Shown here: positions 5,705 through 27,030 of the stretch, in pieces | Numbering within the stretch: the stretch's first letter is position 1 | How the letters are laid out: each line of letters opens with the position of its first letter | Virus record (IMG/VR): IMGVR_UViG_3300023179_000038 | Coordinates: 1-64,000 of that record | DNA length: 64,000 bases | Reading direction: 5' to 3' (one strand) | Source: a virus | The notes under the pieces: model-generated | The model's input: the letters and a program-made list of their open reading frames with translations, nothing else | Told to the model about the DNA's origin: nothing | Database searches by the model: none | Translations under genes and position numbers: made by a program

Positions 5705-6313
5705 ATGCCATATACAGTTAATAATATACCAGTTGGTCACAATCCAGATGAAATTGAAAGACTAGAATCGTATAACCAATTTTTTGAAAAAGTTGGAAGT
5801 TCATCAGAAAACATTAAACTAATACCAAACTTTTTATCCGAAGATGAGATTAAGTATTTACTTGATAGTATTAGTGAAAACAGAAAACTTAGTTTTGAAT
5901 CACAAAAAGATGATTTAGGCAACGCTATAAATTGGATGCATATTTATACTGGCATAGAAGATAAGTTTAAAATTAAAGATAGGATAAAAACTGAAATAAT
6001 TAATGCCTATGGATTCAATAAAATAAGACCAAAAGAGTTTCAACTCAGTGTAGCAAAATGGGAAAAGGGAACCAAATTAAATCTACATGTAGATGACTTA
6101 GGTTATGTTACAAACAATCATATACCTACCCTTATTTATTTAAATGATGATTACGAAGGTGGCGAAATTAGTTTTGCTACACACGATATTACCATAAAGC
6201 CTAAAGTTGGAGATCTTTTAATATTCCCTGGAAATATGCACTACGCACATGAAGTCAAAGAAATACTTTCTGGAACAAGATATACCTTGCCAACCTGGTT
6301 TACAATTGTATAG
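5705..6313 (+). CDS. 2OG-Fe(II) oxygenase, prolyl-4-hydroxylase-like
   Basis: HVD...YLNDDYEGGE...HEV...RY motif; TATAAT-6nt-ATG. Confidence 0.9.
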   Translation: MPYTVNNIPVGHNPDEIERLESYNQFFEKVGSSSENIKLIPNFLSEDEIKYLLDSISENRKLSFESQKDDLGNAINWMHIYTGIEDKFKIKDRIKTEIINAYGFNKIRPKEFQLSVAKWEKGTKLNLHVDDLGYVTNNHIPTLIYLNDDYEGGEISFATHDITIKPKVGDLLIFPGNMHYAHEVKEILSGTRYTLPTWFTIV

Positions 6314-6327
6314 GGTATAACTAAATA

Positions 6328-6591
6328 ATGATAGAAAATGTATCAGAACAACCTAGAAAAAAAAGAAAACTTCTTGATGGATCTGAGGTAAATGATTACG
6401 ATTATCCTATTGATATTATCGTACATACCAAGGCTCCTGGTAAATGGAAGTTAATAGATCTTGAAACTGGTCAAGAATATCTTGGATCAGAAATATCTCA
6501 TGAAACATTTGGAGAAATACTAAGAATAAAAGTGGCAAAGTCTAAAATAGGTTCTTGGTTTAAAACTAAAGGAAAAGTAAAAAAACAATGA
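6328..6591 (+). CDS. Hypothetical protein
   Basis: ORF track; coupled to the next gene. Confidence 0.75.
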   Translation: MIENVSEQPRKKRKLLDGSEVNDYDYPIDIIVHTKAPGKWKLIDLETGQEYLGSEISHETFGEILRIKVAKSKIGSWFKTKGKVKKQ

Positions 6592-7451
6592 ATAATCGTA
6601 AACCTATAACATTTCATTGGATGTGGAGAAGACACTGGCAGATAAGCGATAGTATTGAAAATTTAGACTTTGATGGAATTCTTCGTATGGCACAAGAACT
6701 AGATGATGCAAATGTTAAGTCTGTATTGCTTCCATATGGTCCAGGTGGTATTGATTTTTCTTTAGTTATAAAAGAAGCATTAGAAAAAACAAATCAGTTA
6801 ATTATGACAATTGCTTTACCTGCATATGGGACAAGTCCAGATTATGCTGCTAAGATTTGTGAAACGTTAAATCGTTTTGCACCTGGAAGAATTGGAGTAA
6901 ATCTGGTTGCTGGAAGGTGGGGCGATGAAGGCAACGGTCCTTCTGAAAAACTAGTTATAGATCATTATATGCACGATTCAAGTTTGATTGATACTTTAGA
7001 AAAAAGAGTAGCAATATCAGCAGTTTGGATGGACAATATAATGGATTTAATGAAACGTCATAGACACAAAACACATATGGCAGTGGTTGGTTCTTCAGAC
7101 ACAACAATTAACATAGCAAATAAACATTGTGAATATATCTATGTTGATGATAATTTAGTATATAGAGATCAATTTAAAAAAATTAATCTTAATAAAGTAA
7201 AACCCATACTCATTATTGATCCACTTATTATTAATAATCCAGAAGATGAACATAATGTTAAATATGACAAAAATGCACCAGTAAGAAAGCAGCATCATCA
7301 CGTAAAGGGTTCAATGCTAGATGTTATTAGACAAATAAGAGAACTATCACAAAGGTTTGAGATATATGACTTTATGATTCATACTGATCAAGCAGATATA
7401 AGTCAGTTATTAAAATTAGTAAAGGAGTTTAACGAATATGGAGATATCTGA
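6588..7451 (+). CDS. Luciferase-like (LLM) monooxygenase-family protein, divergent
   Basis: P.YAAKICETLNRFAPGRIGVNLVAG resembles the LLM TLD..S.GR..N.V.G motif. Confidence 0.65.
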   Translation: MNNRKPITFHWMWRRHWQISDSIENLDFDGILRMAQELDDANVKSVLLPYGPGGIDFSLVIKEALEKTNQLIMTIALPAYGTSPDYAAKICETLNRFAPGRIGVNLVAGRWGDEGNGPSEKLVIDHYMHDSSLIDTLEKRVAISAVWMDNIMDLMKRHRHKTHMAVVGSSDTTINIANKHCEYIYVDDNLVYRDQFKKINLNKVKPILIIDPLIINNPEDEHNVKYDKNAPVRKQHHHVKGSMLDVIRQIRELSQRFEIYDFMIHTDQADISQLLKLVKEFNEYGDI

Positions 7452-7980
7452 AAAAACTAAAGAAAAATTTAATATAATTGGCAGTAATCTAAATAATATA
7501 AAAGTTTTTAATAATTATCTTAGTGTAAATGAATGCAATAGCATTATAAAACTAATTAAATTTACAAAAACAAGTAATGTTAGACCACTTCAGTCTGAAG
7601 CCTTATCTTTAATATATTATGACTCGCTTGCATTGCCAGAAAAGTATGTGCCTGGAGTACACTCTATGCTAGAAAAAGAATATGGTGTTAAAGTAAAGCC
7701 AAGGCATTCTCGTTTTGCTGAGTGGAGACATAATAATAGCAACACAGTCCCTATTGATGACATGGGGTCTAAAGACTCTAACCATATGGCAGGTTGGATA
7801 TATCTTAATGATAATTATGAGGGTGGAGAACTTTCTTTTATTAATCAAAATATGTCTTTTAAGCCTAAGACGGGAGATCTTGTTATGTTCCCTGGAAATA
7901 TGCACTATTGGTACAATGTAAACCCTGCAAATGGATCAAGATATATTATGCCTATTTGGTTTGATTTTATTAATGAGTAA
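7438..7980 (+). CDS. 2OG-Fe(II) oxygenase paralog lacking both iron-ligand histidines
   Basis: YLNDNYEGGE and FPGNMHY are conserved, but HxD is PID and the distal His is Tyr. Confidence 0.8.
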   Translation: MEISEKTKEKFNIIGSNLNNIKVFNNYLSVNECNSIIKLIKFTKTSNVRPLQSEALSLIYYDSLALPEKYVPGVHSMLEKEYGVKVKPRHSRFAEWRHNNSNTVPIDDMGSKDSNHMAGWIYLNDNYEGGELSFINQNMSFKPKTGDLVMFPGNMHYWYNVNPANGSRYIMPIWFDFINE

Positions 7981-7985
7981 ATGTT

Positions 7986-8543
7986 ATGAAACCAATCATT
8001 ATAAGTTTTCCAAGATCTGGACAAAGTTATTTACATAAAACTCTTGGTAATGCATTTAAAAAAAACTTTGGTTTTTCTCATTTAAATAATCCTACAAAAA
8101 TGAATGAATTAAACAATTACGATTATTTAATAGCATTAGTTCGTAATCCAATTGATTCAATATCTTCTATTGTTGCAATGAACTTAGAATTTAATAAAGA
8201 TTTAGAAATAAATAATTCAATAAATTATCAAATAAAAGAATATATAAAGTTTTATTCTTTTGCTTTAGAAAATGCAGATACTTTTATAGATTTTAATAGC
8301 ATAGCAAACAATATTGATAAAGTTATTGAATATGTTTCAATAGTAACTAATTATGCTATTTTAAATAATAAGCCAAAAAATAATATCATACAAGATCTTC
8401 CAGATTATAATTTTTTAAAAACTTCTAAAAAAACAGAAAAATATAACGACATAGTTTTTTCTGTAAAAAATAAAGATTTAAATGAATGTTTTAAATTATA
8501 TCAAAATGCATTAGAGAGATGTGTAAAAATAGATGAAATATAA
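7986..8543 (+). CDS. Sulfotransferase-like P-loop protein
   Basis: 5'-PSB-like SFPRSGQSYL and 3'-PB-like VRNPIDSISS. Confidence 0.7.
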   Translation: MKPIIISFPRSGQSYLHKTLGNAFKKNFGFSHLNNPTKMNELNNYDYLIALVRNPIDSISSIVAMNLEFNKDLEINNSINYQIKEYIKFYSFALENADTFIDFNSIANNIDKVIEYVSIVTNYAILNNKPKNNIIQDLPDYNFLKTSKKTEKYNDIVFSVKNKDLNECFKLYQNALERCVKIDEI

Positions 8544-9135
8544 AGATTTGTTTGTTAAAAGTTATGCTAGATCTGCTAGTAATTTTATAATTTATAATAC
8601 TGTACAAATTGTTCCCAATATTAATATTCATAAAAAATCATGGCAAGAACTAAATAAAGATATTTATAACTCTGTTACTGTTTCAATTCTAAGAGACCCA
8701 AAGGATGCAATAATTTCAGACATATCTATGAGTATCTATGATATGCAATACGACATTGATCAGGTTATTAAATTAGACTATAAAAAATCTATTGATTCTT
8801 TTAAAGAATATATAGCGTTATTAAATAAAAATATAAATAGAATTATCCCTTTTACATTTGAGCAAATTACTGAAAATTCAAAAGAAACTTTTAAAATATT
8901 TTTACAAGAATGTGGACATTATGAAGATTTTAACTTTCCTAATGCTAAAATAAAGCAAAAAAATTTAAATAATAAATTAATGAATAAACGACAGATTTTT
9001 TTACCTTCATCAAAAAATTTAGAAATATATAGTAAAATTTCAAATTATATAAATAATGATATTTTTAATTCTGTTTTTGATGAATACAATGAGTGTAAGT
9101 TAAATATATACAAGCGCCAACTTGATTTTTTATAG
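8533..9135 (+). CDS. Sulfotransferase-like protein, divergent
   Basis: SYARSASNFI and LRDPKDAIIS. Confidence 0.6.
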   Translation: MKYKDLFVKSYARSASNFIIYNTVQIVPNINIHKKSWQELNKDIYNSVTVSILRDPKDAIISDISMSIYDMQYDIDQVIKLDYKKSIDSFKEYIALLNKNINRIIPFTFEQITENSKETFKIFLQECGHYEDFNFPNAKIKQKNLNNKLMNKRQIFLPSSKNLEIYSKISNYINNDIFNSVFDEYNECKLNIYKRQLDFL

Positions 9136-9142
9136 CAAAGAC

Positions 9143-9213
9143 GATATAATCAAATATGACTTTTTTAACAAAAGATATCTTAAGTTTTTATGAGTTTAAT
9201 CAAAAAAATAACT
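9143..9213 (+). repeat. 71-bp inverted repeat, copy A
   Basis: 70/71 identical to the reverse complement of 25007-25077. Covers the -10 box and first 19 codons. Confidence 0.9.
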
Positions 9214-10169
9214 GGTATCTAACAAAATTTTTTACAAACACTTCCAATATTGGTCTCTATCCTCCATACGCTCAAAATGTTATTGATAAATATCCAAATG
9301 GTAAATCAAACATTAGCATAGTTGATGAACATAATACATACGAAATTAACAACTTTGGTTTTCGTGGAAAAATTGACAAAGATGCAGATGTACTTGGGGT
9401 TGGTTGTTCTATAACTTTTGGCATTGGTGTTCCAGAATCAGTAAGGTGGACAAATTTTTTAAGCAATAGTCTTAATAAAAATGTTATAAATTTAGGAAGT
9501 CCTGGTGCATCTGTAGAAATGATTTGTAATAATATTATTAAGTATTCTTTAACAACTAAAATACCAAAAGAAATTTTTTGTTTATTTCCAGATTTTTTTA
9601 GAAATATGGTTGTAGTAGATAAAGAATTTTATAAATCAAAAATGATAAAAGACAATGATGTAGAAAGTGATTATTTACAATATACATTTTGTAATCCTAT
9701 AGTAGATGTTTATAAAGAATCTCTTTTTATGGAAATAGAAGATCAAAAAAATATAGAAGACTCAATTTCCCCACATCAATTAATTTTAAATTCTATAAAT
9801 TTTATTTATAATTTAGAATCATTTTGTTTTACAAACAACATTAAATTATATTGGACGACATGGGATATACCAACTGCTATGATTATGAATAAATTGGTTA
9901 ATCTTAAAAATTTTAAATTAAAAAATTACACACCTTTTTATTCGCCCAATCTAAAAACAAAATATCGTGGACATACCTTAGATTGTATTTTAGACCATGA
10001 ATCTGAATTTAAAGATAGTTTATTTTGGCATAAAGGGTCTGATTATTCTATAATAAATAATAAAAAAAATTTAAAAAATGCTCATCCAGGAATTCATTTT
10101 CACTACCATATTGCAGATTTCTTTTATAATTTATATAAAAAAAATGCTATCCAAGTCCCCATCGTCTAG
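9156..10169 (+). CDS. SGNH/GDSL-like hydrolase-fold protein (paralog A)
   Basis: N.FGFRG, GCSITFG, NLGSPG and C-terminal HPG..H motifs. Confidence 0.65.
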   Translation: MTFLTKDILSFYEFNQKNNWYLTKFFTNTSNIGLYPPYAQNVIDKYPNGKSNISIVDEHNTYEINNFGFRGKIDKDADVLGVGCSITFGIGVPESVRWTNFLSNSLNKNVINLGSPGASVEMICNNIIKYSLTTKIPKEIFCLFPDFFRNMVVVDKEFYKSKMIKDNDVESDYLQYTFCNPIVDVYKESLFMEIEDQKNIEDSISPHQLILNSINFIYNLESFCFTNNIKLYWTTWDIPTAMIMNKLVNLKNFKLKNYTPFYSPNLKTKYRGHTLDCILDHESEFKDSLFWHKGSDYSIINNKKNLKNAHPGIHFHYHIADFFYNLYKKNAIQVPIV

Positions 10170-10227
10170 TGGCCTAGGACGTCGCCCTTTCACGGCGTTA
10201 ACACGGGTTCAAATCCCGTTGGGGACG
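10155..10227 (+). tRNA. tRNA-Glu(TTC)
   Basis: Acceptor GTCCCCA/TGGGGAC, anticodon loop CTTTCAC, T-loop TTCAAAT. Confidence 0.95.
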
Positions 10228-10279
10228 CAATATTATAATAAGGTAAAATACAGCATATAATTGTAACTGGAGAATATAA

Positions 10280-10951
10280 ATGAATGATAATTATATAGAA
10301 CGTAATCAAATTGACACTTATTCTAAAAACTTGTCAGAAGGTAAAATTCATGTAGCAACATTTCCAAGAACGGGATCTACATATCTCTGGTGGATATTTC
10401 ATATTTCTTTTGGAAAAAATGTTTATAAAACTCACATTGTTAATGAACCACCAGGAAATGATATTGCAAATCTGCCAAGAGACTATTATTGGAAAATGAA
10501 TAAAATTTTTTTTAAAGATGAAGACTATGTAGTTAATATATTAAGAGATCCCATTGACACGGTCTCATCAATGTTAGTTCAAGAATATTTCTACTTAAAA
10601 AATAAAGTTGATTTAGAAAAATATATAGATGATAACGTTGAAAGTCGTATAAGGCAATATAATATTTTTCATCATAATGTCCCAAAACTTTGCGAACTTA
10701 TATTAAATTATGAAGATATAAATTTATATAGGAATAAAATTGTAAATCATATTAGTAAAGAAACTGGTAAAAAAATTATAAGCACTGACTATAAATATTC
10801 TATAAAAGATAACGTAAGTACTAGTTTTTTAAAATCTTCAAAAGTTTTTGATAACTATAACTTTGTGCGAGAGCAGGCTTCTAATCGTAATCTTGTTGAT
10901 TCATATAGCATATATAATAATTTATTAAAAAAATGTAAAAATTTTAAATAG
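10280..10951 (+). CDS. Sulfotransferase-like P-loop protein
   Basis: TFPRTGSTYL, KTH and LRDPIDTVSS motifs. Confidence 0.75.
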   Translation: MNDNYIERNQIDTYSKNLSEGKIHVATFPRTGSTYLWWIFHISFGKNVYKTHIVNEPPGNDIANLPRDYYWKMNKIFFKDEDYVVNILRDPIDTVSSMLVQEYFYLKNKVDLEKYIDDNVESRIRQYNIFHHNVPKLCELILNYEDINLYRNKIVNHISKETGKKIISTDYKYSIKDNVSTSFLKSSKVFDNYNFVREQASNRNLVDSYSIYNNLLKKCKNFK

Positions 10952-12142: not shown

Positions 12143-12164
12143 ACTATCATTATAGCATAAAAAA

Positions 12165-12262: not shown

Positions 12263-12271
12263 TATATTATA

Positions 12272-12800: not shown

Positions 12801-13067
12801 TTACTTCTTTGCTGCTGCTTTCTTTTTTGCAGGAGCCTTTTTTGCAACAGCACTCTTTGCTGCCTTTGCCACCTCGTCTATAGATGGTAGACGACCAAAC
12901 GCCTTATCATTAGGATTTGCGTACCTCAATGCTACTGGCGCCAAGGCTGCGATTAGTGAGTATGCTAGATCTTTTGGATCTGTTACTCCAGCCATGTATA
13001 GTGTTGCTACACCAGCAAGTACAGATCGTCCGTATGATGCTAGTAGTGCTTTTGTTGATGCGTTCAT
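12801..13067 (-). CDS. Putative holin-like membrane protein with Lys/Ala-rich tail
   Basis: Two hydrophobic segments, NPND.AFG motif and AKKAPAKK tail; GGAGG RBS. Confidence 0.55.
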   Translation of the reverse strand: MNASTKALLASYGRSVLAGVATLYMAGVTDPKDLAYSLIAALAPVALRYANPNDKAFGRLPSIDEVAKAAKSAVAKKAPAKKKAAAKK

Positions 13068-13138
13068 TATTCCTCCTAGGATATAACTGTTTTTAATTTG
13101 AATGCAGCAAAATTTGAGCCACATCCAAAACCTGTTAA

Positions 13139-13543
13139 TCATGTATCTAGTTTACCATACTCTTCGGGCAAGAGTTTTTTAAGTTTTTTATATCCTAAAG
13201 AAATTTTTATCATACCCTCATTTAAATAGGTATCCATAGGGCTGCCATGCTCATCAAAATGTTTAATATATGGCTCAATATCATTAATAAAACTATTTAT
13301 TTCAGATTGCACATTTTCAATATAAAGAAAAGCATCTTGTCTTGATTTTTCTAAAAATGTAATAAAATTTTGACTATTTTCTATTTTAAGTTTATCTTTA
13401 ATAATTTTTTTGTCTAGTTCTACTTGTATAATGTGATTTTTTAATTTAATAATCTTATAATTCATTGATATTGTTTTCATAATCATAAAAATAAAAAAAG
13501 ATGCAGAAATAAAAAAAATAAAAAACTCTAAAATACTTTTCAT
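13139..13543 (-). CDS. Hypothetical protein with N-terminal TM
   Basis: ORF track. Confidence 0.75.
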   Translation of the reverse strand: MKSILEFFIFFISASFFIFMIMKTISMNYKIIKLKNHIIQVELDKKIIKDKLKIENSQNFITFLEKSRQDAFLYIENVQSEINSFINDIEPYIKHFDEHGSPMDTYLNEGMIKISLGYKKLKKLLPEEYGKLDT

Positions 13544-13776
13544 TTTTCTGCATCTCTTACTAATAAAACAATGGCTCCATTATCCTCTAATGCCTTTTTT
13601 ATTCTTACCATATACTCTACAGCACGACGCTTATCTTCATCAGCCAAACTCATAAAAGACTTTTCTGAAGCACGGACAGTAATAAAATGATCGTTATCTA
13701 TTATATCTAATGAAAATCCTTTTGGACAAAAATGACTTAATGATCTAAAGGCACGAGCCATTTCAGGTGTATACAT
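13540..13776 (-). CDS. Hypothetical protein
   Basis: ORF track; coupled on both sides. Confidence 0.8.
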   Translation of the reverse strand: MYTPEMARAFRSLSHFCPKGFSLDIIDNDHFITVRASEKSFMSLADEDKRRAVEYMVRIKKALEDNGAIVLLVRDAEK

Positions 13777-15076: not shown

Positions 15077-15077
15077 A

Positions 15078-18232: not shown

Positions 18233-19657
18233 TTATCTTGTAATTATAAAGTTGTATTCTTTTTCCCATGCCTGAATATCTATTTCATCATTAAGCAACG
18301 GCTGTCCTTTAATATTAAGACTAGTATTAAGAAGAATTGGAACACCTGTTAATGTATACCAATTTGACAACACTTTATGTAATCCTTGATGTTGAATCTT
18401 ATTTACAGTTTGAACTCTAGATGTTCCGTCTCTATGAACTACTGATGGTATTTTGTCTGGTTGTAAACACTTAACAGCATACTGCATGTATGGTGAATCA
18501 AAATCCATATCAAACCATTTGTCTGCATACTCTTCAAGCACTACTGGGGCAAAAGGTCTAAACAATTCTCTTTTTTTAATTTTATTTACCTGATCTTTAA
18601 TGTTTGGATCTCTTGGGTCTGCTAGAATACTTCTATTTCCCAACGCTCTTGGTCCATACTCTGCTCTTCCAGTCGCTACCGCTACAATTTTATTTTTAAT
18701 TAATTTATTTATTATTTCAGATGCTGGATATTGTCCACCAAGATCAAAACCTAAATATGGTGATTGCCAATCTAAATGTTCTCCGTATAGTGCTGCTGCT
18801 GCACCCAAAGATGATCCAGCATCTCCAGGGTTTGGCATAATCCATACATCATCAAATATATCCCACAACATTGTGTTGGCTGAACAATTTAATGCACAGC
18901 CACCCATAAACACTAATTCATTCTTACCTGTAATTTTTTTAGCGTGAATCATAAAATCAAATAGTCTTAATTCATATACCTTTTGAACTGCTGCTGCAAT
19001 ATCAAACTTATCCTGCTCTGTTATTTCTTGTTCCCAGTCATGTATTCCTTTGTGAAAATTATATGATTGATAATATATTGAAGGAAAATAAGATGAAACT
19101 TTTTGATAATATTTTTTCCAGTCACCATACGCAGCCATACCCATCATAATATATTCTTCTTGGTTTGGCATCAATCCAACTAATTTAGTAAATGCGGAAT
19201 AAAATAGTCCAAAACTAAATGGATAATTTATTTTTTCTTTTAAGATAATTGAAGATCGCTCTCCAATCCAAATTGTAGATGTATTATATTCTCCAATTGA
19301 ATCTAACACTACAATAACGGCGTCATCAAATTTGCTTGTATAATACCCTGCTGCTGCATGGGAATAGTGGTGTTTAAATGATATTTTTGGAATATTATCT
19401 AAATGAAAGCGTGGCTTCCAATCTCCTAAACCACCCCTAAAAAGCAGCCTAGAGGCTTTTAAAAGGGGTTTCTCATAGTAGGCAACATAATCGGGCATGC
19501 CATATTGCAAAGCATCTTTTATTAAACTATCATTGAGGTACCAGTCATTTTTTTGTTTGCTATATCGCTCTGCATGACCAGCAAATAATATTTTATTATT
19601 TTCAATTAGTGATACTGAAGCGTCATGAGATGTTTCATTAATACCAAGAATTCGCAT
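18233..19657 (-). CDS. Carbamoyltransferase (NodU/CmcH family)
   Basis: HDAS, ERYSK.KND, HHYSHAA, GGCALN, EYGPRALGNRSILADP, FRPFAP and LNTSLN motifs. Confidence 0.95.
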   Translation of the reverse strand: MRILGINETSHDASVSLIENNKILFAGHAERYSKQKNDWYLNDSLIKDALQYGMPDYVAYYEKPLLKASRLLFRGGLGDWKPRFHLDNIPKISFKHHYSHAAAGYYTSKFDDAVIVVLDSIGEYNTSTIWIGERSSIILKEKINYPFSFGLFYSAFTKLVGLMPNQEEYIMMGMAAYGDWKKYYQKVSSYFPSIYYQSYNFHKGIHDWEQEITEQDKFDIAAAVQKVYELRLFDFMIHAKKITGKNELVFMGGCALNCSANTMLWDIFDDVWIMPNPGDAGSSLGAAAALYGEHLDWQSPYLGFDLGGQYPASEIINKLIKNKIVAVATGRAEYGPRALGNRSILADPRDPNIKDQVNKIKKRELFRPFAPVVLEEYADKWFDMDFDSPYMQYAVKCLQPDKIPSVVHRDGTSRVQTVNKIQHQGLHKVLSNWYTLTGVPILLNTSLNIKGQPLLNDEIDIQAWEKEYNFIITR

Positions 19658-20322
19658 TATTCTTCTCCAGTTGATTCTCTTTTATTTGCAAAAGAAATGT
19701 TGTGATACCAATTTGGCAAAGCATATCTAGGCCCTTTTGTAACTGGATAAACTTCGTGTACATATAAAAAATTTGATGGGAAAAATAAAATACTACCAGC
19801 CTCTGGCTTAAATTTTAAATTAGAATGTTTAAATTCAATTTCTCCACCCTCATAGTCATCATTCAAATATAACAATACAGACAAAACCCTACTACTTATT
19901 CCCTGATCTTGATGTGCTGGAAGATGTCCTGATTCATTGTATTTTAATAGGTGCATTGTTTTTTCTCTTGATTTAATATTTTTTGCAGCAAACGGATAAA
20001 TTTCTGTTGAGTAATGGTTTAATGTAATATCTAATGAACCAAAAAGTTCGGAAGAAATATGTTTTTGTTCTTCTAAATAAATATCATCAAGTGGTATATC
20101 TTCAACTTGTGGTATAAATTTCTGCAAACAAAAATTTAATTTATTACTTCCTTCGCCATATGTCCAAGGAATCCAGGGCCTTACAATTGTTTTTTTATAA
20201 TTTTCAGGAAAAGAAAGAAATTTTTCATTTAATAACTCAATTTTATTAATTAGTTCATCAGGGTTATTTACAATATTTTTGTAATAAACCATGCCAAGAT
20301 CAAGTATTTTATATTCTAACAT
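19657..20322 (-). CDS. 2OG-Fe(II) oxygenase, P4H-like
   Basis: HQD, YLNDDYEGGE, HEV, RY. Confidence 0.9.
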   Translation of the reverse strand: MLEYKILDLGMVYYKNIVNNPDELINKIELLNEKFLSFPENYKKTIVRPWIPWTYGEGSNKLNFCLQKFIPQVEDIPLDDIYLEEQKHISSELFGSLDITLNHYSTEIYPFAAKNIKSREKTMHLLKYNESGHLPAHQDQGISSRVLSVLLYLNDDYEGGEIEFKHSNLKFKPEAGSILFFPSNFLYVHEVYPVTKGPRYALPNWYHNISFANKRESTGEE

Positions 20323-20382
20323 TAGTATATAAACCTATTTTGATCTTTATTTTTTTTCATTTGTCTTAATATAAAATATGTT

Positions 20383-20988
20383 TTAATTTTTTTTATTATG
20401 TTTTTCATAATATAATGCCTCCCATCTTAAATTTTTATTTTCTTCAATAAAATCTGGATCTGCATGTTCTGGAATGCTAGTGTGCATATAAAGCGCCGTG
20501 TGCCTATGCCCTTCTGTAATTTCTGTTATACCATGAATGTATTCTGATCCAGCACTTGGAAAAAAAACCGCAGAGTATTGTTTTGGCCTATATATAAAAT
20601 CTTGATTTGGAAAATAAATTTCTCCTCCATTATATTCTGAAGAATCATTTAAATATATAATTGTGCTCCACTCAATAAATGGCTCTGGGCCTTGTGCATC
20701 TATATGCAAATCTCCTTTTGTTCCTTTAGTCCAATGAGATCCAAATGCTTTAAAGGTGTATATTGGATTAACAAAACCATTCAATTCTCTGTGCTTTTCA
20801 TTTGCAAAAATAGAATATTTTCTTAATATACTAATAACATTTTTATTATATGGAAAGGCGGTACCACCGTATCTTTTTTTGTAATATTCTGGATATGGGT
20901 TTGTTTCACTTGGATTTAATTGCTCATCAATCAAAATTTTTGCATCTTCTTTACCTATAAAGTTATCAATTACATTAATTCTGTGCAC
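20383..20988 (-). CDS. 2OG-Fe(II) oxygenase, P4H-like
   Basis: HID, YLND..Y.GGE, HGI, R. Confidence 0.9.
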   Translation of the reverse strand: MHRINVIDNFIGKEDAKILIDEQLNPSETNPYPEYYKKRYGGTAFPYNKNVISILRKYSIFANEKHRELNGFVNPIYTFKAFGSHWTKGTKGDLHIDAQGPEPFIEWSTIIYLNDSSEYNGGEIYFPNQDFIYRPKQYSAVFFPSAGSEYIHGITEITEGHRHTALYMHTSIPEHADPDFIEENKNLRWEALYYEKHNKKN

Positions 20989-21048
20989 AAGTTCCTCCGT
21001 TGCTAAATATAAATTTGATCGATGTGCCTATCTCGTTATTCTATTATA

Positions 21049-21873
21049 CTATAAAACTTCAATTTTATTATATCCAGAATGAAATTTTAATGTATTAGCG
21101 TTATCAATTGATATACGCACATCTGAATATGGAACATCATTTATCTGATATGGCAATTTTGGAATAGTAGACACCTTTATTTTATGAAAACTTTCAAATA
21201 AATCATTATTTAAATTATTAACAATATCAATCATGTCATTATATCCATGCGTTTTGGAATATGGATAATACATAATGTCCTGATCTATATTTTTTATTTT
21301 ATAGAATGTAGAATTCATAGAAAATATTTTGATTCCTTTATTAAGAGAAAGAATTGAGGCAAAAAGTTCTTGTCCATAATGTTTAAGACAATTTAACTGA
21401 TTTAAAAAAATTGAATCTTTTTGTTTTAAAAAAATTAAATCCATGTCAATCAAATTTGACTCTAATATTACATCGTTATACTTTTTATTAAATACAAGAT
21501 TGTTATTTTTTACTGATATATTTTTAAAAAAATTTCCAGATATAATTGTATTTTCTTTTAATGATTTAATAAGTAGGCTATCCCACTCATTAGTAAGTGA
21601 TATATTTGGTGACAGTTCTAAAAAATAGTCTGCTCTTTGATCAAACAATACGTGTTTTCTATAAAATGGTATTCCCTTTGTATCATCCCATGAAATATGT
21701 CGATAAAATGTATTATTTATTGATTTAAAGTTATAAGATCTATCTAATGTGTTTTGATCAAATATATGATAAATAATCTTATTTTCATGACTTTCGTTAT
21801 TTATTATAGAAAGAATGTTTTCTAATAAATCTTTTACCTTATATGAATAAATAAATACATTTATCGAATTCAT
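21049..21873 (-). CDS. Glycosyltransferase, GT-A fold, resembling GT60/Gnt1-type GlcNAc transferases (divergent)
   Basis: I.V.I.SY...L...I...Q...G...R...YFL.L......WD..LI pattern. The DSH motif is degenerate (SPN). Confidence 0.5.
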   Translation of the reverse strand: MNSINVFIYSYKVKDLLENILSIINNESHENKIIYHIFDQNTLDRSYNFKSINNTFYRHISWDDTKGIPFYRKHVLFDQRADYFLELSPNISLTNEWDSLLIKSLKENTIISGNFFKNISVKNNNLVFNKKYNDVILESNLIDMDLIFLKQKDSIFLNQLNCLKHYGQELFASILSLNKGIKIFSMNSTFYKIKNIDQDIMYYPYSKTHGYNDMIDIVNNLNNDLFESFHKIKVSTIPKLPYQINDVPYSDVRISIDNANTLKFHSGYNKIEVL

Positions 21874-21876
21874 TTT

Positions 21877-22536
21877 TTATAATGGGAAATAGTGTTGTTC
21901 ATTTGCATTGCCTCGTAAGGCCTTTAATGGCGTTATATCATATGCAATAGTAATTCGTGGACCTTCCCAATCCCAGTCTGCCATAGCATGTGGATGCCCC
22001 ATCTCAGAGACAACCAATCTATTGTCTATGTTTTTATTTTCAAACTTTTGGTCATCTTTGTTATCAATCTTGTACCATGTTGATGATGGCTCTGCTTTAA
22101 CACAATAGTAACCATGAAAGAATGGTGCCCAAGGGCCACCATGATCATGCCAGTCTAACTTACCCTTGCCCTTATGTGTAATATTAAACCAACCCTGAAT
22201 CATGTATTGTTGTTCTTCAAAGTTTATTCCATAATATTCGCATGCTTCTTTTACGGTTTCTCTAACGCCAATAAAAAGTTTATAAATTTCTTCATTGTAA
22301 AATTGAAACACATTATATTCTTTCCATTTTACAGTTGAAAGGCTACCACTTTCAAGCCAAATCTCTCTTCCATATTCTCCCAATTTGCTTACACCTGGAA
22401 CTTTTGCTTGCTCTATTTGATCATATTTTAGTTCTAAAAATTTAGACAACTTATCTAGGTCATTATCTAAAAACTTTTCAAAAAACTTGTGTGGCTTGTT
22501 ATATCTTTTTGGTGTTAAGTATATTGCATTTTGCAT
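21877..22536 (-). CDS. Putative 2OG-Fe(II) oxygenase (HxH type, TIGR02466-like)
   Basis: QGWFN, WHDH, HGYY, HPH and RITIAYD. Start set at MQNAI. Confidence 0.75.
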   Translation of the reverse strand: MQNAIYLTPKRYNKPHKFFEKFLDNDLDKLSKFLELKYDQIEQAKVPGVSKLGEYGREIWLESGSLSTVKWKEYNVFQFYNEEIYKLFIGVRETVKEACEYYGINFEEQQYMIQGWFNITHKGKGKLDWHDHGGPWAPFFHGYYCVKAEPSSTWYKIDNKDDQKFENKNIDNRLVVSEMGHPHAMADWDWEGPRITIAYDITPLKALRGNANEQHYFPL

Positions 22537-22577
22537 GTTAAGTCCTATCCCCCTAGTTAAATTAATTATATCACTAA

Positions 22578-23315
22578 CTAATACTGCTTTTTTTGCCATG
22601 TTGTTTTTTTATAGTGTGCGGTTATATGTGTCCTTCTTTTTTCTTCTCTTTCTTTATTTTGCCAATATTTTTCTTCAGATACATCTATGTCCAGTTCCCA
22701 ATCTTCCCTTTTGATAGGAATCATCTGAAATAAAGGCGTACCTTTTGGGATTATTCCAACAAATCCACGTTTTAAAAAAAATGGGATAAATGTTGGAAGA
22801 CCCCAAATGTCTGTATCAACTATAGCAGAAGAACAGTAAAATGGCAAATCATATCTATTTAATGGTGTTGTAAATAGCAAAGAATATCCAGGTGGCGTTT
22901 CTTGATACCAGGTCATTTTCCAACCAAACTGAATGGGATAGCATTCTTTTGGTATTGGTATGTCTACTTTGGGTCTTGTATCAATAATGTGATCATTACT
23001 TTTCCAACTTATAGAAGGTTTTTCGTTATCATTTATATCAATAAAAATATCTTCTGGTAATAAATACATATAGCCAGAAATTAAAGCATCTAAAAATGGT
23101 GGGCATAACTTTGTTGCTACATCCGAACCATCTTGCCCTCTATCATTTACTGGGTGTAAAAACCTTATATTATTGCTAGATGCACCATTATATCCAGCCA
23201 AATCTTTATACCAGTCTGGAATTACTTTTAATGCCTGCACTGGTGGATTTTGATATGAATTACTATTTTGTGATTGTGAGGTTGTAGAAAAAGTTATTTT
23301 TTTTCTATTTTTCAT
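22578..23315 (-). CDS. Conserved phage protein often found beside 2OG oxygenases (KxCP.F.D....GY; TPPGYS; VDTD)
   Basis: Motif recognition; possibly DUF6065/dUTPase-like fold. Confidence 0.65.
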   Translation of the reverse strand: MKNRKKITFSTTSQSQNSNSYQNPPVQALKVIPDWYKDLAGYNGASSNNIRFLHPVNDRGQDGSDVATKLCPPFLDALISGYMYLLPEDIFIDINDNEKPSISWKSNDHIIDTRPKVDIPIPKECYPIQFGWKMTWYQETPPGYSLLFTTPLNRYDLPFYCSSAIVDTDIWGLPTFIPFFLKRGFVGIIPKGTPLFQMIPIKREDWELDIDVSEEKYWQNKEREEKRRTHITAHYKKTTWQKKQY

Positions 23316-23967
23316 GTAATATCCGCTTCGCTAATTTTTTATCTTTAATAATTATATCACATATAGGGCTTTCTACATTTATTATGCCAAATATATCTCC
23401 GTTAAATTCTTTTATATGTTCTCCAGTATTTTTAATAAAAAAATGAATAAATCCTACATCCCATATGTCTTTATCTCTGTTTATTTTATTAAATACAATA
23501 GTATCGCTATGAATAAAAAATACAGAGTTAGGTACTTCTTGTATTTTTGCCTCAACATCTGCATCAACTATCCATGGAATATAAAACTTATACATTGCGT
23601 CAAACGTTCCAATAGGTGCTTTTACATCTAAGTTTGATGGGTAAAATTGTCTTTGCATAACTTTGTCTAGTGCATATATTCCATTTGGTTTTTTTTCAAA
23701 CCATATTTCTGCATGTGTTTTATATCTTAAAATAACTGTATCTTTTTCACAAATTATTTCTGGCTTATAAGAAAAAATTTTTGCATACTCATTTGCTGGT
23801 TTTAATACTTTATCTGAATAACCATTATCGAGTAAGGTTTTAGAAAGTTTCCATTTATCATATTGCAAAATATTATCTTTGCATATTTCACTAAACGTTT
23901 TTAGTTCAGAATTAACCCAATACTCTGAGCCAATTCTTCTTCTGTTTAAAAAATTGTTTAAGTCCAT
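23305..23967 (-). CDS. Hypothetical protein
   Basis: ORF track; overlaps the next gene. Confidence 0.75.
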   Translation of the reverse strand: MDLNNFLNRRRIGSEYWVNSELKTFSEICKDNILQYDKWKLSKTLLDNGYSDKVLKPANEYAKIFSYKPEIICEKDTVILRYKTHAEIWFEKKPNGIYALDKVMQRQFYPSNLDVKAPIGTFDAMYKFYIPWIVDADVEAKIQEVPNSVFFIHSDTIVFNKINRDKDIWDVGFIHFFIKNTGEHIKEFNGDIFGIINVESPICDIIIKDKKLAKRILHEK

Positions 23968-23994
23968 ATATCTATTTTACCAAAACACAACTTG

Positions 23995-24067
23995 CTGGTC
24001 TAGCAGGTCTCGATCCTGCGACATCTCGATTAACAGTCGAGTGTTCTACCAACTGAACTATAGACCA
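23995..24067 (-). tRNA. tRNA-Asn(GTT)
   Basis: Acceptor TGGTCTA/TAGACCA, anticodon arm CTCGA-CTGTTAA-TCGAG, atypical T-loop ATCGAGA. Confidence 0.92.
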
Positions 24068-24068
24068 A

Positions 24069-25064
24069 TTATTTAACTGTGGATAACTCATAAAAAAATT
24101 CTGCAATATGATAGTGAAAATGGATTCCTGGATGAGCACGATCTGATGTTTTTTTATAATTTACAATAGAGTAATCAGATCCTTTTGTCCAGCATATATT
24201 GTCTTTAAATTCAGAATTATGAAATGAATCACATTGTGTTGCTACAAAATTATCAAGATTTTTTGGCTTATCTTTTGACATAAAAGGTACAAAATTTTTT
24301 AATTTAAAGTCTTTAAGTTTTATTAATTTTTCCATAATAAAAGAACTTGGAAGGTCCCATGTTGTCCAGTATAATTTTATATTATTTGACAAACAAAATG
24401 ATTCTAAAATATAAATATTATTTACAGCATTTAAAATTAATTGATGTGGAGAAATCGAGTCTTCTATATATTTTTGATCTTCTATTTTCATAAAAATAGA
24501 ATTTTTGTATAACTCAACTGTTGGGCTACAAAACGTAAGTTGTAGTATATTTTTTTGTTCAATTCTTTTGTCTGGTATTTTTGGCTTATAAAATTCTCTA
24601 TCTACTACAACCATACGTCTAAAAAAATCTGGAAATAAACAAAAAACTTCTTTTGGCATTTTATTATTCATGCAATATTGAATAATATTATTACAAATAG
24701 TTTCTACAGATCCTCCAGGATTGCCCAAGTTCATAACATCTTTATTGGCTAGATTTCCTAAAAAATTTGTCCATCTTCCCTCTTCTGGAACTCCAATACC
24801 AAAGGTAATAGAGCAACCTGATGCAAGAATATCTGAATCTTCATAAACTTTTCCCCGTAAGCCAAGGCTATTAATTTTATATGTATTGTATTCATCTATT
24901 GTCCCTGTATAAGGATCACCGCTTGGTTTTGAATATACAACATTTTCAGCATACGGTTGATAAAAACCAACTTCTTTGGTATCTTTATAATATTTTGCTA
25001 AATACGAGTTATTTTTTTGATTAAACTCATAAAAACTTAAGATATCTTTTGTTAAAAAAGCCAT
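24069..25064 (-). CDS. SGNH/GDSL-like hydrolase-fold protein (paralog B)
   Basis: Clear paralog of 9156-10169 (GCSITFGIGVPE, IEDSISPHQLILN, AHPGIHFHYHIA). Confidence 0.65.
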   Translation of the reverse strand: MAFLTKDILSFYEFNQKNNSYLAKYYKDTKEVGFYQPYAENVVYSKPSGDPYTGTIDEYNTYKINSLGLRGKVYEDSDILASGCSITFGIGVPEEGRWTNFLGNLANKDVMNLGNPGGSVETICNNIIQYCMNNKMPKEVFCLFPDFFRRMVVVDREFYKPKIPDKRIEQKNILQLTFCSPTVELYKNSIFMKIEDQKYIEDSISPHQLILNAVNNIYILESFCLSNNIKLYWTTWDLPSSFIMEKLIKLKDFKLKNFVPFMSKDKPKNLDNFVATQCDSFHNSEFKDNICWTKGSDYSIVNYKKTSDRAHPGIHFHYHIAEFFYELSTVK

Positions 25065-25077
25065 ATTTGATTATATC
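25007..25077 (-). repeat. 71-bp inverted repeat, copy B
   Basis: 70/71 identical to 9143-9213. Confidence 0.9.
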
Positions 25078-25081
25078 ATAT

Positions 25082-25882
25082 TCATATCTTGTAATTATAT
25101 TCTTTAACAAAATTTAAAATTTCTTTAATATCTTTTTTATTCCAAACAGAAAACCAAGCAGAAAACATTATTTGTGTAATTCCTTTGCTTCTAAGTTTGT
25201 CTATTATGATAGTCAATTGATCATAAGTAAATTTTACATACTCTGAAGGGATTTCTATAACTCCTTCATATCCATTTAAATTATCTAACTCTTCTTGTGT
25301 TTTTCTTATAATTGGTTTAAAATACATCATAACTTGCTTATCTAATATTTGTTTATCTGATATATTGTATTGATTGTTTATATACTGATGATATGGAATT
25401 ATTATTTTGTTATTATATTTTGATGCAGTTTCAAAAGTAAAATTATTAGTTACCGATACATAGTAGTCTGGTTTTTCTTCTTGTGGTATTTGGCTTAATA
25501 AGTCAATATATTCTATAAAGTGATTAGATTTTTTTGTGTTTGACTTGTTTGTTATTGGACCTAAAGTTTTAGACATTTTTTGTTCTGTAAAAACTTTATT
25601 ACCAGATACTAAATTTATTTGTAGCCTATTTTCTTTAGAAATTTCCTTAATAGATTTATCTATTTTAACTAAATACTCTGGTGACAAAACATATGGCCTA
25701 ATAGCAACCATATATTTAATTTTTTTATGAATATCAAGATCTCTCGCTATTTTTGTAAAAAAATCAGAGCGCAATGGGTTATAAGGAAAAAGATTTCCAG
25801 TAAAGCCAATATCTTCCATTTGAGTGAGTAGATTGAAATCTTGATTAATTAAATAAAAATCTATATTATTTAAAGTCATCAC
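25082..25882 (-). CDS. Luciferase-like monooxygenase-family protein, divergent
   Basis: IKYMVAIRPYVLSP.Y...RLQINLVSG resembles SsuD-type LLM motifs. Confidence 0.7.
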   Translation of the reverse strand: MMTLNNIDFYLINQDFNLLTQMEDIGFTGNLFPYNPLRSDFFTKIARDLDIHKKIKYMVAIRPYVLSPEYLVKIDKSIKEISKENRLQINLVSGNKVFTEQKMSKTLGPITNKSNTKKSNHFIEYIDLLSQIPQEEKPDYYVSVTNNFTFETASKYNNKIIIPYHQYINNQYNISDKQILDKQVMMYFKPIIRKTQEELDNLNGYEGVIEIPSEYVKFTYDQLTIIIDKLRSKGITQIMFSAWFSVWNKKDIKEILNFVKEYNYKI

Positions 25883-26424
25883 CTAATTAGTCCAAGTTTT
25901 GGTCTAACTAGATCTGAGCCAGCAAATTTAAACCATAATGTGGCAGAATATCTTTCTTTGTCAGTATTTTGAAGCACTTCATGCCAATAATCAGCATTGC
26001 TAGGAAATGTAATAAAACTATTAGCCTTTGGTTTAATCTTTAAATTATGATCCATAAAATTAATTTCTCCACCACCATAGTCATCATTAAGATAATATAT
26101 TGCTGCAAAATCTCCTGCTGTATCTGCATGTTCGTTCATTTTGTAATCTTTTTCAAATTTAACTAAAGGCACCTGTCTATTTTTAAAAGGATAAAGATCT
26201 GCATTATAAAGTTTTGTACATTTTTCGTAAGCAAGTAAAAAAACTTTATCCAATAAATTAATGATTTCTTTTGGCATTGCGTTAGGTGAAAGCGTTTTGA
26301 CTCCCCAAGGCTGTGTATCCCAAGAATCAACGCTTTGTGCATAATCAAGCAATTTTTTATGATCTTCTTTAGATAAAATTTTTTCTGTAACCTGTATATT
26401 ATTTACAGAATTTCCTATTGTCAT
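25879..26424 (-). CDS. 2OG-Fe(II) oxygenase, P4H-like
   Basis: HAD, YLNDDYGGGE, HEV, RY. Confidence 0.9.
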   Translation of the reverse strand: MTIGNSVNNIQVTEKILSKEDHKKLLDYAQSVDSWDTQPWGVKTLSPNAMPKEIINLLDKVFLLAYEKCTKLYNADLYPFKNRQVPLVKFEKDYKMNEHADTAGDFAAIYYLNDDYGGGEINFMDHNLKIKPKANSFITFPSNADYWHEVLQNTDKERYSATLWFKFAGSDLVRPKLGLIR

Positions 26425-26427
26425 TTT

Positions 26428-27030
26428 TTAATTATACCATTCTGATTTTTTATTAAATGTAGACCCAGTAAACTGAAACCACATAGTAGAACTATATCTG
26501 TCACCTTCAGTAATTTCGAGGACTTCATGCAAATAATTTTCATTTCCAGGAAAAATTATTAGGCTATTGGCTTTTGGTTTAATCTTTAAATTATGATCTG
26601 GAAAATTAATTTCTCCACCACTATAATCATCATTGATATAATATATTGACGCAATGTGGTTTCCTTCAAACGATGAGGTATCTACATGTGGAACTAAATA
26701 AAAATTTTTTGTAAATTTAACTAAATGTGGCGCAGTTTTCCAAAAAGGATTAAGATCTACACGGTAAAAATCTATAGAATTTTTGCGAGCAAGTTCAAAT
26801 ATACCATCTAATATTTCAAAAATTTCTTTTGATAAGTCTTGTGATTCAATAGTCAAAGCATCCCATGGCTGTTCTGTCCAACATTGAGCATTTTTTGCAT
26901 AATCAAGCAATTGTTTGTGATCTTCTTTAGACAGCACATTTTCTATGTAATGTATATTGTCTGTAGAATTACCTATTTTTAAAATATTTTTTATGTAAAC
27001 TTCATCTTTTTTAGATGGATCAGTAATCAT
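26428..27030 (-). CDS. 2OG-Fe(II) oxygenase, P4H-like (tandem paralog of 25879-26424)
   Basis: HVD, YINDDYSGGE, HEV, RYS; shared LSKEDHK.LLDYA and DHNLKIKPKANS. Confidence 0.9.
   Translation of the reverse strand: MITDPSKKDEVYIKNILKIGNSTDNIHYIENVLSKEDHKQLLDYAKNAQCWTEQPWDALTIESQDLSKEIFEILDGIFELARKNSIDFYRVDLNPFWKTAPHLVKFTKNFYLVPHVDTSSFEGNHIASIYYINDDYSGGEINFPDHNLKIKPKANSLIIFPGNENYLHEVLEITEGDRYSSTMWFQFTGSTFNKKSEWYN

Follow-up and report, generated by a model that had tools for sequence, protein, structure and literature searches.

The first 64,000 bases of IMG/VR virus record IMGVR_UViG_3300023179_000038 (hereafter the window; the whole phage record has 110,677 bp and was judged 99% complete) carry, between positions 5690 and 27030, genes for 2-oxoglutarate-dependent (2OG) oxygenases, short luciferase-like monooxygenases (LLMs), sulfotransferase-like proteins, SGNH-fold enzymes, a glycosyltransferase (GT), and a carbamoyltransferase. 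We found that these genes form at least three separate enzyme modules and not one pathway. The region forms a hyperplastic accessory zone in the genome of an uncultured freshwater (lake) actinophage, which has ~110 kb and a GC content of 33%. An earlier note on this DNA had proposed one combinatorial decoration pathway on a common scaffold; the linkage it saw holds within sub-modules, where synteny and a gene fusion bear it out, but the modules assort independently of one another. Their most likely role, which we put forward tentatively, is to tailor phage proteins or their glycans in separate modules, by hydroxylation and then decoration.

The genes of cassette A, on the plus strand, are labeled A1 to A8, and those of cassette B, on the minus strand, B1 to B10 (Table 1). 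The conserved units are module I (5690-10951), module II (19657-23967), and a third unit (24069-27030). Relatives were collected by scanning IMG/VR. The SGNH gene brought in 22 loci, and for the carbamoyltransferase, which had relatives in more than 596 stretches, 80 loci were kept. To these were added five complete relatives (G001-G005; 111-119 kb), and all open reading frames (ORFs) of the window were mapped onto these loci and genomes, so that about 100 related contigs and the five complete relatives were compared in all. The six complete genomes referred to below are this phage (G000) and G001-G005, and L-numbers denote loci of relatives.

Modules with a conserved internal order assort independently

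Around the SGNH gene, 15 of the 19 distinct gene orders show module I in full, as 2OG oxygenase, 87-residue protein, LLM, pseudo-2OG oxygenase, sulfotransferase(s), and SGNH gene; three of the four that do not are contigs cut within it. In seven loci, the LLM and the pseudo-2OG oxygenase are one ORF of 475-480 amino acids, and this fusion, together with the synteny in many contigs, indicates that module I is more than a chance assembly. Module II (B5, B6, B7 or a second B6, GT, 2OG, 2OG) recurs in about 25 loci. The third unit is 2OG-2OG-(LLM)-(SGNH), and in relatives its 2OG pair sits between homologues of 12801-13142 and 13139-13543. The carbamoyltransferase is a core gene of the phage lineage, with relatives in more than 596 viral stretches, the 80 kept loci having 74-87% identity.

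When co-occurrence and synteny were followed through the relatives, a check the earlier note had proposed, a conserved core was found within modules, but the modules themselves come and go separately. Modules I and II are both present in G001-G003. G004 has neither, but its carbamoyltransferase, with three distant SGNH-like genes on its flanks, is retained, as is the adenosine 5′-phosphosulfate (APS)-kinase fusion described below. G005 has module II 50 kb from the carbamoyltransferase and possesses neither module I nor the APS-kinase fusion. In the closest relative, L006 (91% identical at the SGNH gene), the homologue of 17996-18208 leads directly to the CHAP endolysin, and the whole of cassette B is absent there. 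This independent assortment among relatives means that the modules are not one fixed pathway. G004 also carries, at 81867-90746, nine 2OG-like genes and a DUF6065-like gene beside a 457-residue protein ending in a Pro-Phe polymer (PFFPFFPPFF...).

A serious alternative, which we consider possible if on the whole doubtful, is that the region is a mosaic of unrelated accessory genes in a plastic, tRNA-rich zone, with each module or gene acting on its own host or phage target and no shared scaffold. This would agree with the assortment seen in the six complete genomes and with the missing cassette B of L006, as well as with the 2OG pair standing at differing places in different relatives, with module II lying within 8 kb of the carbamoyltransferase in only 10 of 18 well-flanked gene orders, and with the WhiB, HSP20, and SNase-type nuclease genes found between the cassettes. 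However, gene order is strongly conserved inside the modules, two genes are fused in some phages, and 2OG, LLM, SGNH, and carbamoyltransferase genes keep re-associating in varied arrangements, suggesting related chemistry.

An LLM paired with a predicted pseudo-oxygenase in module I

The region encodes seven 2OG oxygenases, one of them a conserved pseudo-enzyme. Five ORFs (A1, A4, B10, B2, and B1) scored 34.8-65.6 bits against PF13640 (2OG-FeII_Oxy_3), whose cut-off is 27. The HxD...H triad and the 2OG-binding Arg are present in A1, B1, B2, B9, and B10, whereas A4 has only part of this set. A1, of the prolyl 4-hydroxylase (P4H)-like type, is the first gene of module I in relatives, where its orthologues are 55-86% identical. 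In A4 and all its orthologues, the fused ones included, PIDD stands for HxD and HYWY places a Tyr at the distal His, and the Asp and the 2OG-binding Arg are kept. The earlier note had called this ORF inactive-looking, and the loss of the first iron-binding His (to Pro) and of the distal His in every orthologue agrees with that; judged by these residues, A4 is a predicted conserved pseudo-oxygenase and probably a binding partner of the LLM.

The LLMs are weak matches when searched alone, a single sequence remaining below the Pfam cut-off (15.9 versus 27.9 bits). A 13-member family profile matched SsuD (3e-12) and MsuD (8e-11) in the PDB, both over ~90 N-terminal residues only, and 3rao matched over positions 41-229 at 6e-5. 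The proteins have 266-287 residues, compared with about 380 for SsuD. Among module I loci, A3 is 80-89% identical. A 2OG gene adjoins the LLM gene in three separate subfamilies, and in the two beyond module I, which are distantly related, the 2OG gene directly precedes it.

In module I, the small protein A2 always lies between A1 and A3 and is 80-90% identical, with residues 11-82 near-invariant across 10 relatives; it is also found without the rest of the module. Its sole match was a PHROG without assigned function, and the ESM Atlas gave none. We regard A2 as a candidate partner or substrate of the module I enzymes. Tyr24 of A2 is Phe in the sulfotransferase-less G004 type. Co-variation of this residue with the presence of a sulfotransferase was considered and discarded as too weak, since the Tyr is kept in other loci without a visible sulfotransferase.

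Mini-sulfotransferases and an APS-kinase fusion

A5, A6, and A8 belong to one family, whose 20-member profile matched almost only sulfotransferases in the PDB (1e-6). The 5′-phosphosulfate-binding motif (5′-PSB, PRSG) and the 3′-phosphate-binding motif (3′-PB, RDPxDSxxS) are recognizable throughout: R10, R53, P55, and S61 are invariant among the 20 diverse members, and P9 and G12 nearly so. A hidden Markov model (HMM) alignment to SULT2A8 pairs both motifs for binding 3′-phosphoadenosine 5′-phosphosulfate (PAPS). An invariant His32 sits 21 residues ahead of the 3′-PB Arg, the same spacing as in SULTs. The proteins have only 185-223 residues, against about 280 for the full-length fold with its acceptor-binding regions, and profile positions 4-135 alone align to solved enzymes. 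The family comprises 2,447 representative clusters, and the best 150 of these carry neither annotation nor context. A6 has orthologues in L006 and L021 only.

The sulfotransferase slot is highly variable: it holds one to three genes, and identity there drops to 24-30%, compared with 80-88% for the genes on either side. The sulfotransferases have a GC content of 20-25%, against 33% for the genome. For the most variable genes taken together (the sulfotransferases at 7986-9135, the GT, and the second LLM), the GC content is 20-24%, which is consistent with rapid turnover or import.

Between the cassettes, the earlier note had placed a CysC. The gene found there encodes an APS-kinase-like N-terminal half fused to an HxGH nucleotidyltransferase. 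Residues 2-84 match positions 4-90 of the 152-position APS-kinase profile, and the lid half does not align; against the PDB, the best 18 matches are all APS kinases (best 5e-9), and the C-terminal half matches NMNAT (2e-4). The C-terminal ~105 residues contain HEGH, a GRD motif, and ISAT, an order that, by eye, seems to recall the HxxH, GRDHAG, and ISGT of ATP sulfurylase as much as NMNAT. The protein could be either a minimal PAPS synthase or a NadR-like enzyme, and PAPS supply is a possible role. It is 84-92% identical in most close relatives and, besides its absence from G005, is present in G004, which has no sulfotransferase. Together with its neighbor, a small DUF2061 membrane protein, it forms a pair conserved in relatives. 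The two DUF2061 proteins match PF09834 at 4e-17 and 8e-12, and a literature search on DUF2061 gave nothing relevant.

Module I and the APS-kinase fusion could make up a self-contained viral sulfation system, in which a minimal bifunctional phage enzyme would provide PAPS, the fast-evolving mini-sulfotransferases would sulfate Tyr or oxygenase-made hydroxyls on a phage protein (the D-Y-D-x-P patch of A2, or a fibre or collagen-like protein), and the LLM/dead-2OG pair would be a new two-domain hydroxylase. We hold this full version to be unlikely. We know of no virus-encoded sulfation system.

The same genes could instead serve organosulfur auxiliary metabolism, with the LLMs freeing sulfite from sulfonates, the cysC-like kinase feeding host sulfur assimilation, and nothing being decorated. 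The LLM profile comes closest to the monooxygenases of alkanesulfonate, methanesulfonate, and dimethylsulfone, and freshwater phage cysC genes have been reported as transcribed auxiliary metabolic genes (AMGs) (PMC10914622). However, these short LLMs match SsuD/MsuD over the N-terminal ~90 residues only and are always paired or fused with P4H-type domains, not with a flavin reductase, and the sulfotransferases, SGNH enzymes, GT, and carbamoyltransferase would be left unexplained, making this proposal very improbable.

SGNH paralogues, tRNAs, and the apparent mirror symmetry

A7 and B4 are 62% identical in amino acid sequence. Their profile found a weak GDSL match in the PDB (0.027). An AlphaFold model (pLDDT 58) gave Foldseek matches that at E ≤ 0.001 were all SGNH enzymes (best 2e-5), and in VIA only SGNH proteins, with Z scores of 10-12.3 over 160-206 aligned residues. 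The best VIA match was CgnD (Z 12.3 over 206 aligned residues). Carbohydrate esterases make up most of the fold matches, which also include a leader peptidase of a peptide that ribosomes synthesize and that is modified post-translationally (RiPP). Ser85, Cys84, and His310 are invariant, block I reads GCS, and there is no Asp three residues ahead of the His, where the DxxH of block V would place one. The family search returned 258 clusters, all unnamed metagenomic proteins, and in 185,579 species genomes, the alignment gave just two matches, both short and in blocks I-II. The gene is about 60% identical among module I loci.

The earlier description of two mirrored, tRNA-anchored cassettes was not supported; the symmetry comes down to one inverted SGNH duplicate plus distant paralogy. 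The arms of the inverted repeat (9138-10134 and 24083-25082) are 78-81% identical in nucleotides, and the remaining likeness of the cassettes is distant paralogy (for the LLMs, 27% over 92 amino acids). A tRNA directly after the SGNH gene was found here and in L010 (an SGNH-tRNA-Asn junction) only; elsewhere in the relatives, tRNA arrays usually lie ~1 kb downstream of the SGNH gene. At the 5′ ends of the two SGNH genes, a 71-nucleotide stretch with one mismatch (9143-9213 on the plus strand and 25007-25077 on the minus strand) starts GATATAAT and contains a TATAAT box ending 7 nucleotides ahead of the ATG. This suggests either a leaderless-type promoter held identical by gene conversion or a recombination site able to invert the ~15-kb segment between the copies.

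The CgnD match raises the question of whether the substrate tailored here is a small ribosomal peptide or a small-molecule natural product, in which case the SGNH enzyme would be a peptidase like CgnD and the precursor would be A2 or some other small ORF. CgnD is the leader peptidase of crocagin, and we take the D-Y-D-x-P patch of A2 to resemble a tyrosine-sulfation or prolyl-hydroxylation site. The crocagin pathway likewise has a 2OG dioxygenase, non-catalytic helpers, and a carbamoyltransferase (PMC10070186), and secondary-metabolite roles have been proposed for cyanophage dioxygenase arrays (PMC2938197). Nevertheless, generic SGNH esterases score within about 1 Z unit of CgnD. A2 is conserved over nearly its full length, unlike a leader-plus-core precursor, it occurs without the module, and its Tyr persists in some loci that show no sulfotransferase. 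No backbone synthase, RiPP recognition element (RRE) domain, or exporter was seen, and we give this explanation a low probability.

Module II and the carbamoyltransferase

The carbamoyltransferase matches NovN, TobZ, and GdmN at 1e-47 to 1e-45 and is about 100 residues shorter than TobZ. Among the oxygenases of module II, the nearest solved relatives of B10 are the Bacillus anthracis P4H (6e-6), PiuC, P3H1, and LH3, with Tet-like enzymes at 0.15. B7 has no Pfam match, a search of this genome with PF13759 gave none, and B7 alone found nothing useful in the PDB; in the ESM Atlas, it groups with PF13759 clusters (score 0.96; predicted-structure TM 0.74-0.78). A relationship of B7 to B6 was rejected on the basis of hhalign.

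B8 was called a GT from its homologues, of which six of 14 match PF11397/GT60 (best 3e-4) and two of 14 match GT2. B8 itself has no Pfam match, PF11397 found nothing in this genome, and neither B8 alone nor its profile found a useful relative in the PDB.

The two hypotheticals of cassette B are present as described and can now be given an identity, a dUTPase-fold family (DUF6065). Eight of 20 B6 homologues match PF19541 (DUF6065). The B6 model (pLDDT 82.7) has as its best 21 VIA matches (Z 8.2-4.7) dUTPases, dCTP deaminases, or viral dUTPase-related proteins exclusively, the next being at Z 2.8; all 18 chains with Z ≥ 5 belong to the dUTPase superfamily, and Foldseek agrees. By sequence, PF00692 found nothing even at E 10, and the B6 profile matched no PDB sequence. 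The DUF6065 consensus contains a motif-III-like GIVDSDIWG, seen by eye. B5 always lies upstream of B6 in module II. A literature search on DUF6065 returned nothing relevant, and the family search only unnamed metagenomic proteins. Full-length homologues ~30% identical to B6 occur in 49 haloarchaeal tailed-virus records (HF1, HF2, HRTV, and HJTV types), where it is a solitary gene between the replication genes and the virion genes; the family therefore extends over viruses of both bacteria and archaea.

B2 and B1, the tandem oxygenases of the third unit, are 52% identical (blastp 2e-62). Taken together, HMM, profile, and structure searches left the earlier family calls (2OG, LLM, sulfotransferase-like, SGNH-like, GT, and carbamoyltransferase) essentially unchanged.

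A role of module II and the carbamoyltransferase in DNA hypermodification has to be weighed: a pyrimidine methyl in DNA or nucleotides would be hydroxylated, the GT and the carbamoyltransferase would cap it, and the dUTPase-fold proteins would handle the nucleotide pool. A 2OG oxygenase with a GT recalls the JBP and JGT pathway of base J and, reportedly, phage TET and GT islands. B5 and B6 have the dUTPase/dCTP-deaminase fold, and B10 gives a weak Tet_JBP match (E 0.0016). However, PF00303 (thymidylate synthase/dCMP hydroxymethylase), PF02511 (ThyX), and PF00145 (C5-methyltransferase) had no match in G000, G001, G002, G004, and G005, in which controls matched, and no canonical dUTPase was found in these five complete genomes. 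The absence of a thymidylate-synthase homologue and a C5-methyltransferase excludes the known route of 5-hydroxymethylcytosine (5hmC) carbamoylation. The oxygenases match prolyl/lysyl hydroxylases far better than Tet, the carbamoyltransferase is in all genomes with or without module II, and to our knowledge, sulfotransferases and SGNH enzymes have no role in DNA. One phage TobZ-type enzyme is a proven 5hmC carbamoyltransferase, but thymidylate-synthase co-occurrence was specific to modified contigs in that study (PMC8670742), and overall we consider a DNA target quite unlikely here.

Predicted tailoring of phage proteins or glycans

Several lines of evidence point to a protein or glycan target. 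The oxygenases are nearer to prolyl and lysyl hydroxylases than to Tet/JBP, the GT is nearest to polypeptide GlcNAc-transferases, and the SGNH matches are mostly carbohydrate esterases, with the RiPP leader peptidase as a further match. A third SGNH paralogue lies in the fibre region of the genome, adjoining a nucleotide-sugar epimerase/dehydratase and a (PT)n Cys-rich protein (genome 96390-97235). Outside the window, at 100220-100936 on the minus strand of the genome, a collagen-like protein of 238 residues has 14 G-X-Y triplets (GPQGPEGPQGPKGDKGEKGERGEKGDKGETG...) with Lys at Y, together with a globular domain at the C-terminus, and it is conserved in G000-G004 and not in G005. In the cultured cyanophage S-CAM3, the carbamoyltransferase homologue lies between tail-fibre genes, with heptose and nucleotide-sugar enzymes, a context that points in the same direction, as does the prediction of hydroxylation followed by sulfation by Iyer et al. 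2010.

On this basis, we propose a scheme whose every step is inferred. The enzymes would be cytoplasmic, as no N-terminal signal peptide was obvious by eye. The oxygenases would place hydroxyls on side chains of phage-made proteins or attached glycans, candidate substrates being the collagen-like protein, the (PT)n protein, fibre proteins, and A2, and the short flavin monooxygenase would work with the catalytically dead 2OG domain. Hydroxyls could then be capped by sulfate, sugar, or carbamoyl, SGNH enzymes may add or remove acyl groups, and the APS-kinase fusion may raise PAPS supply. Swapped AT-rich transferase genes would vary the final decoration between phages.

Other observations weigh against this scheme. 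No substrate was identified. The SGNH model is of low confidence, the GT assignment comes from weak matches to homologues only, co-occurrence of the APS-kinase fusion with the sulfotransferases is not strict, and the dUTPase-fold proteins and TobZ-type carbamoyltransferase also suit nucleotide chemistry. Promoter and terminator scans in this AT-rich DNA stayed at the level of shuffled sequence, and expression timing was not readable from them. The collagen-like protein was rejected as a module II substrate because it fails co-occurrence, with G004 having the protein and no module II and G005 showing the reverse.

Genome setting and neighboring genes

In the window, genes from 842 to 10951 are on the plus strand and everything from 11108 to 64000 is on the minus strand, which runs from the structural genes through the CHAP endolysin and cassette B to a small-gene block. 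All the ORFs and tRNAs listed in the earlier note were found where it had placed them. Megablast of the whole region against GenBank phages gave no match, and PHROGs assigned no function to its unknown ORFs.

Table 1. Genes and tRNAs of the region, in the order of their positions in the window
Feature	Position	Strand	Assignment and characteristics
A1	5690-6313	+	P4H-like 2OG-Fe(II) oxygenase; PF13640 E 9e-12; HVDD and AHEV motifs, intact HxD...H triad
A2	6328-6591	+	87-residue protein; basic ends, invariant acidic D-Y-D-x-P patch
A3	6588-7451	+	Putative short flavin monooxygenase, luciferase-like (SsuD-like); N-terminal region of NCBIfam SsuD matched at 2e-8
A4	7438-7980	+	Predicted pseudo-2OG oxygenase; PF13640 3e-8; overlaps A3 by 14 nucleotides
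A5	7986-8543	+	Mini-sulfotransferase-like, 185 residues; PRSG and RNPIDSISS motifs; GC 20%
A6	8533-9135	+	Sulfotransferase-like paralogue; degenerate 5′-PSB loop (ARSA); keeps R10, H32, RDP, SSK
A7	9156-10169	+	Atypical SGNH-fold hydrolase or transferase; GCS for GDS; 3′ end overlapped by tRNA-Glu
tRNA-Glu (UUC)	10155-10228	+	ARAGORN
A8	10280-10951	+	Sulfotransferase-like paralogue, 223 residues; blastp to A5 2e-15; PRTG and RDPIDTVSS motifs
DUF2061 small membrane protein	13776-13988	-	70 residues; conserved neighbor of APS-kinase fusion
APS-kinase fusion	14022-14783	-	253 residues; APS-kinase-like N-terminal half (PF01583 2e-14) and minimal HxGH nucleotidyltransferase
DUF2061 second copy	17996-18208	-	70 residues; directly downstream of carbamoyltransferase
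Carbamoyltransferase	18233-19657	-	NodU/CmcH/TobZ-type; Carbam_trans_C 1e-52 (178 bits), Carbam_trans_N 5e-36 (125 bits), both above cut-offs
B10	19657-20322	-	P4H-like 2OG oxygenase; PF13640 8e-18
B9	20383-20988	-	P4H-like 2OG oxygenase; blastp to A1 1e-14; HIDA...H motif; 50-76% identical in module II of relatives
B8	21049-21873	-	Putative divergent GT-A glycosyltransferase, nearest GT60 (polypeptide GlcNAc-transferases); GC 22%
B7	21877-22599	-	2OG-FeII_Oxy_5-like oxygenase; invariant H151, D152, H153, H204
B6	22578-23315	-	DUF6065 protein, dUTPase/dCTP-deaminase-like fold; invariant Cys71
B5	23305-23967	-	Distant paralogue of B6; family-profile hhalign probability 86%, E 5e-6
tRNA-Asn (GUU)	23994-24067	-	ARAGORN; starts 1 nucleotide after ORF 24069-25064
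B4	24069-25064	-	SGNH-fold paralogue of A7; inverted DNA repeat with A7
B3	25082-25882	-	Second short SsuD-like LLM; NCBIfam SsuD 1e-6; member of LLM profile; overlaps upstream 2OG gene by 4 nucleotides
B2 and B1	25879-27030 (25879-26424, 26428-27030)	-	Tandem P4H-like 2OG oxygenases; PF13640 3e-13, 5e-14

The block between the cassettes holds the WhiB, HSP20, and SNase-type nuclease genes and small ORFs without assigned function. The WhiB gene (14786-15124, minus strand; PF02467 E 4.5e-12) fits an actinobacterial host. The SNase-type gene (16383-16790, minus strand; PF00565 2.6e-16) is 79-90% identical in most relatives carrying it, and a 200-residue Cys-, His-, and Tyr-rich protein (17104-17706, minus strand) has no family match and is patchy in relatives, at 33-99% identity. 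A tRNA-Leu (UAA) at 27049-27122 on the minus strand closes cassette B. The two genes after it (27132-28675, minus strand) give weak subtilase-like and proteasome-like matches and accompany module II and the endolysin in many relatives.

Relation to known systems and significance

The earlier note had named the system its best candidate for an undescribed one, which applies in part. The enzyme families and phage dioxygenase arrays were known (PMC2938197); module I, by contrast, was not, and its LLM, SGNH, and sulfotransferase genes had no tblastn match in 50,697 deposited phage genomes. The array of Synechococcus phage Syn9 contains ten dioxygenases and a dUTPase-fold protein that bears a Cys (Iyer, Abhiman, de Souza and Aravind 2010, PMC2938197), and module II similarly has PF13640-type and PF13759-like oxygenases beside the Cys71-bearing dUTPase-fold B5/B6, a likeness drawn from the published description. 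Unlike Syn9, the present modules also have short LLMs, which in some loci are fused to a dead 2OG domain, mini-sulfotransferases, SGNH enzymes, a GT60-like GT, and the carbamoyltransferase; the cassettes contain no tryptophan halogenase, and the host is an actinobacterium instead of a cyanobacterium.

In certain bacterial operons, genes for dioxygenases, sulfotransferases, and PAPS synthetases occur with those for collagen-like or tail-collar proteins, and "first hydroxylated ... then sulfated" was the prediction made for these operons (PMC2938197). The proposed sulfation of an oxygenase-made hydroxyl with a dedicated PAPS supply would resemble this, and the present phage does encode a collagen-like protein. 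However, its PAPS gene is the 253-residue APS-kinase/HxGH-nucleotidyltransferase fusion, of predicted activity, its collagen-like gene, about 90 kb distant, shows no co-variation with the modules, and its sulfotransferases are about 100 residues shorter than solved ones.

Mycobacteriophage virions, whose hosts are also actinobacterial, are reportedly glycosylated, as Freeman and colleagues are said to have described in 2023. Mimivirus encodes collagen lysyl hydroxylase/glycosyltransferases (PMC9546862, PMC5802723). In both cases, viral oxygenases and/or GTs act on the virus's own structural proteins, but no sulfation, carbamoylation, LLM, or SGNH step is known there, and in the present phage a virion target is only a candidate. 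The 5hmC carbamoyltransferase (Yang et al. 2021, PMC8670742) is phage-encoded and of the same TobZ/NodU family. It differs in its setting, the thymidylate-synthase-type dCMP hydroxymethylase being absent from the five complete genomes searched here, and the present carbamoyltransferase resembles those of the "unmodified" contigs in that study. Positions W408, G421, and R423 of TobZ are reported to mark 5hmC-specific carbamoyltransferases. Crocagin biosynthesis (PMC10070186) offers a peptide substrate, the CgnC 2OG dioxygenase, the CgnB/E helpers, the SGNH-type peptidase CgnD, which is the best structural match of A7, and the CgnI carbamoyltransferase. In contrast, no precursor peptide or CgnB/E-type binder was recognizable here, and the structural match is no clear gain over generic esterases.

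Few unexplained genes of aquatic phages are as common as those for P4H-type oxygenases, whose arrays have been without a substrate since 2010. The lineage described here is large and offers tractable clues, namely the LLM/dead-oxygenase fusion, a tiny conserved partner, the collagen-like and (PT)n candidates, and swapped transferases. If virion proteins or glycans are the target, virion decoration in actinophages would extend to sulfation and carbamoylation, and it could affect host recognition, stability, and defence evasion in highly abundant freshwater bacteria. Phage cysC genes, now counted as sulfur assimilation in ecological AMG surveys, would then have to be reread as well. Should module I and the kinase fusion act together as outlined above, they would be the first virus-encoded protein-sulfation pathway.

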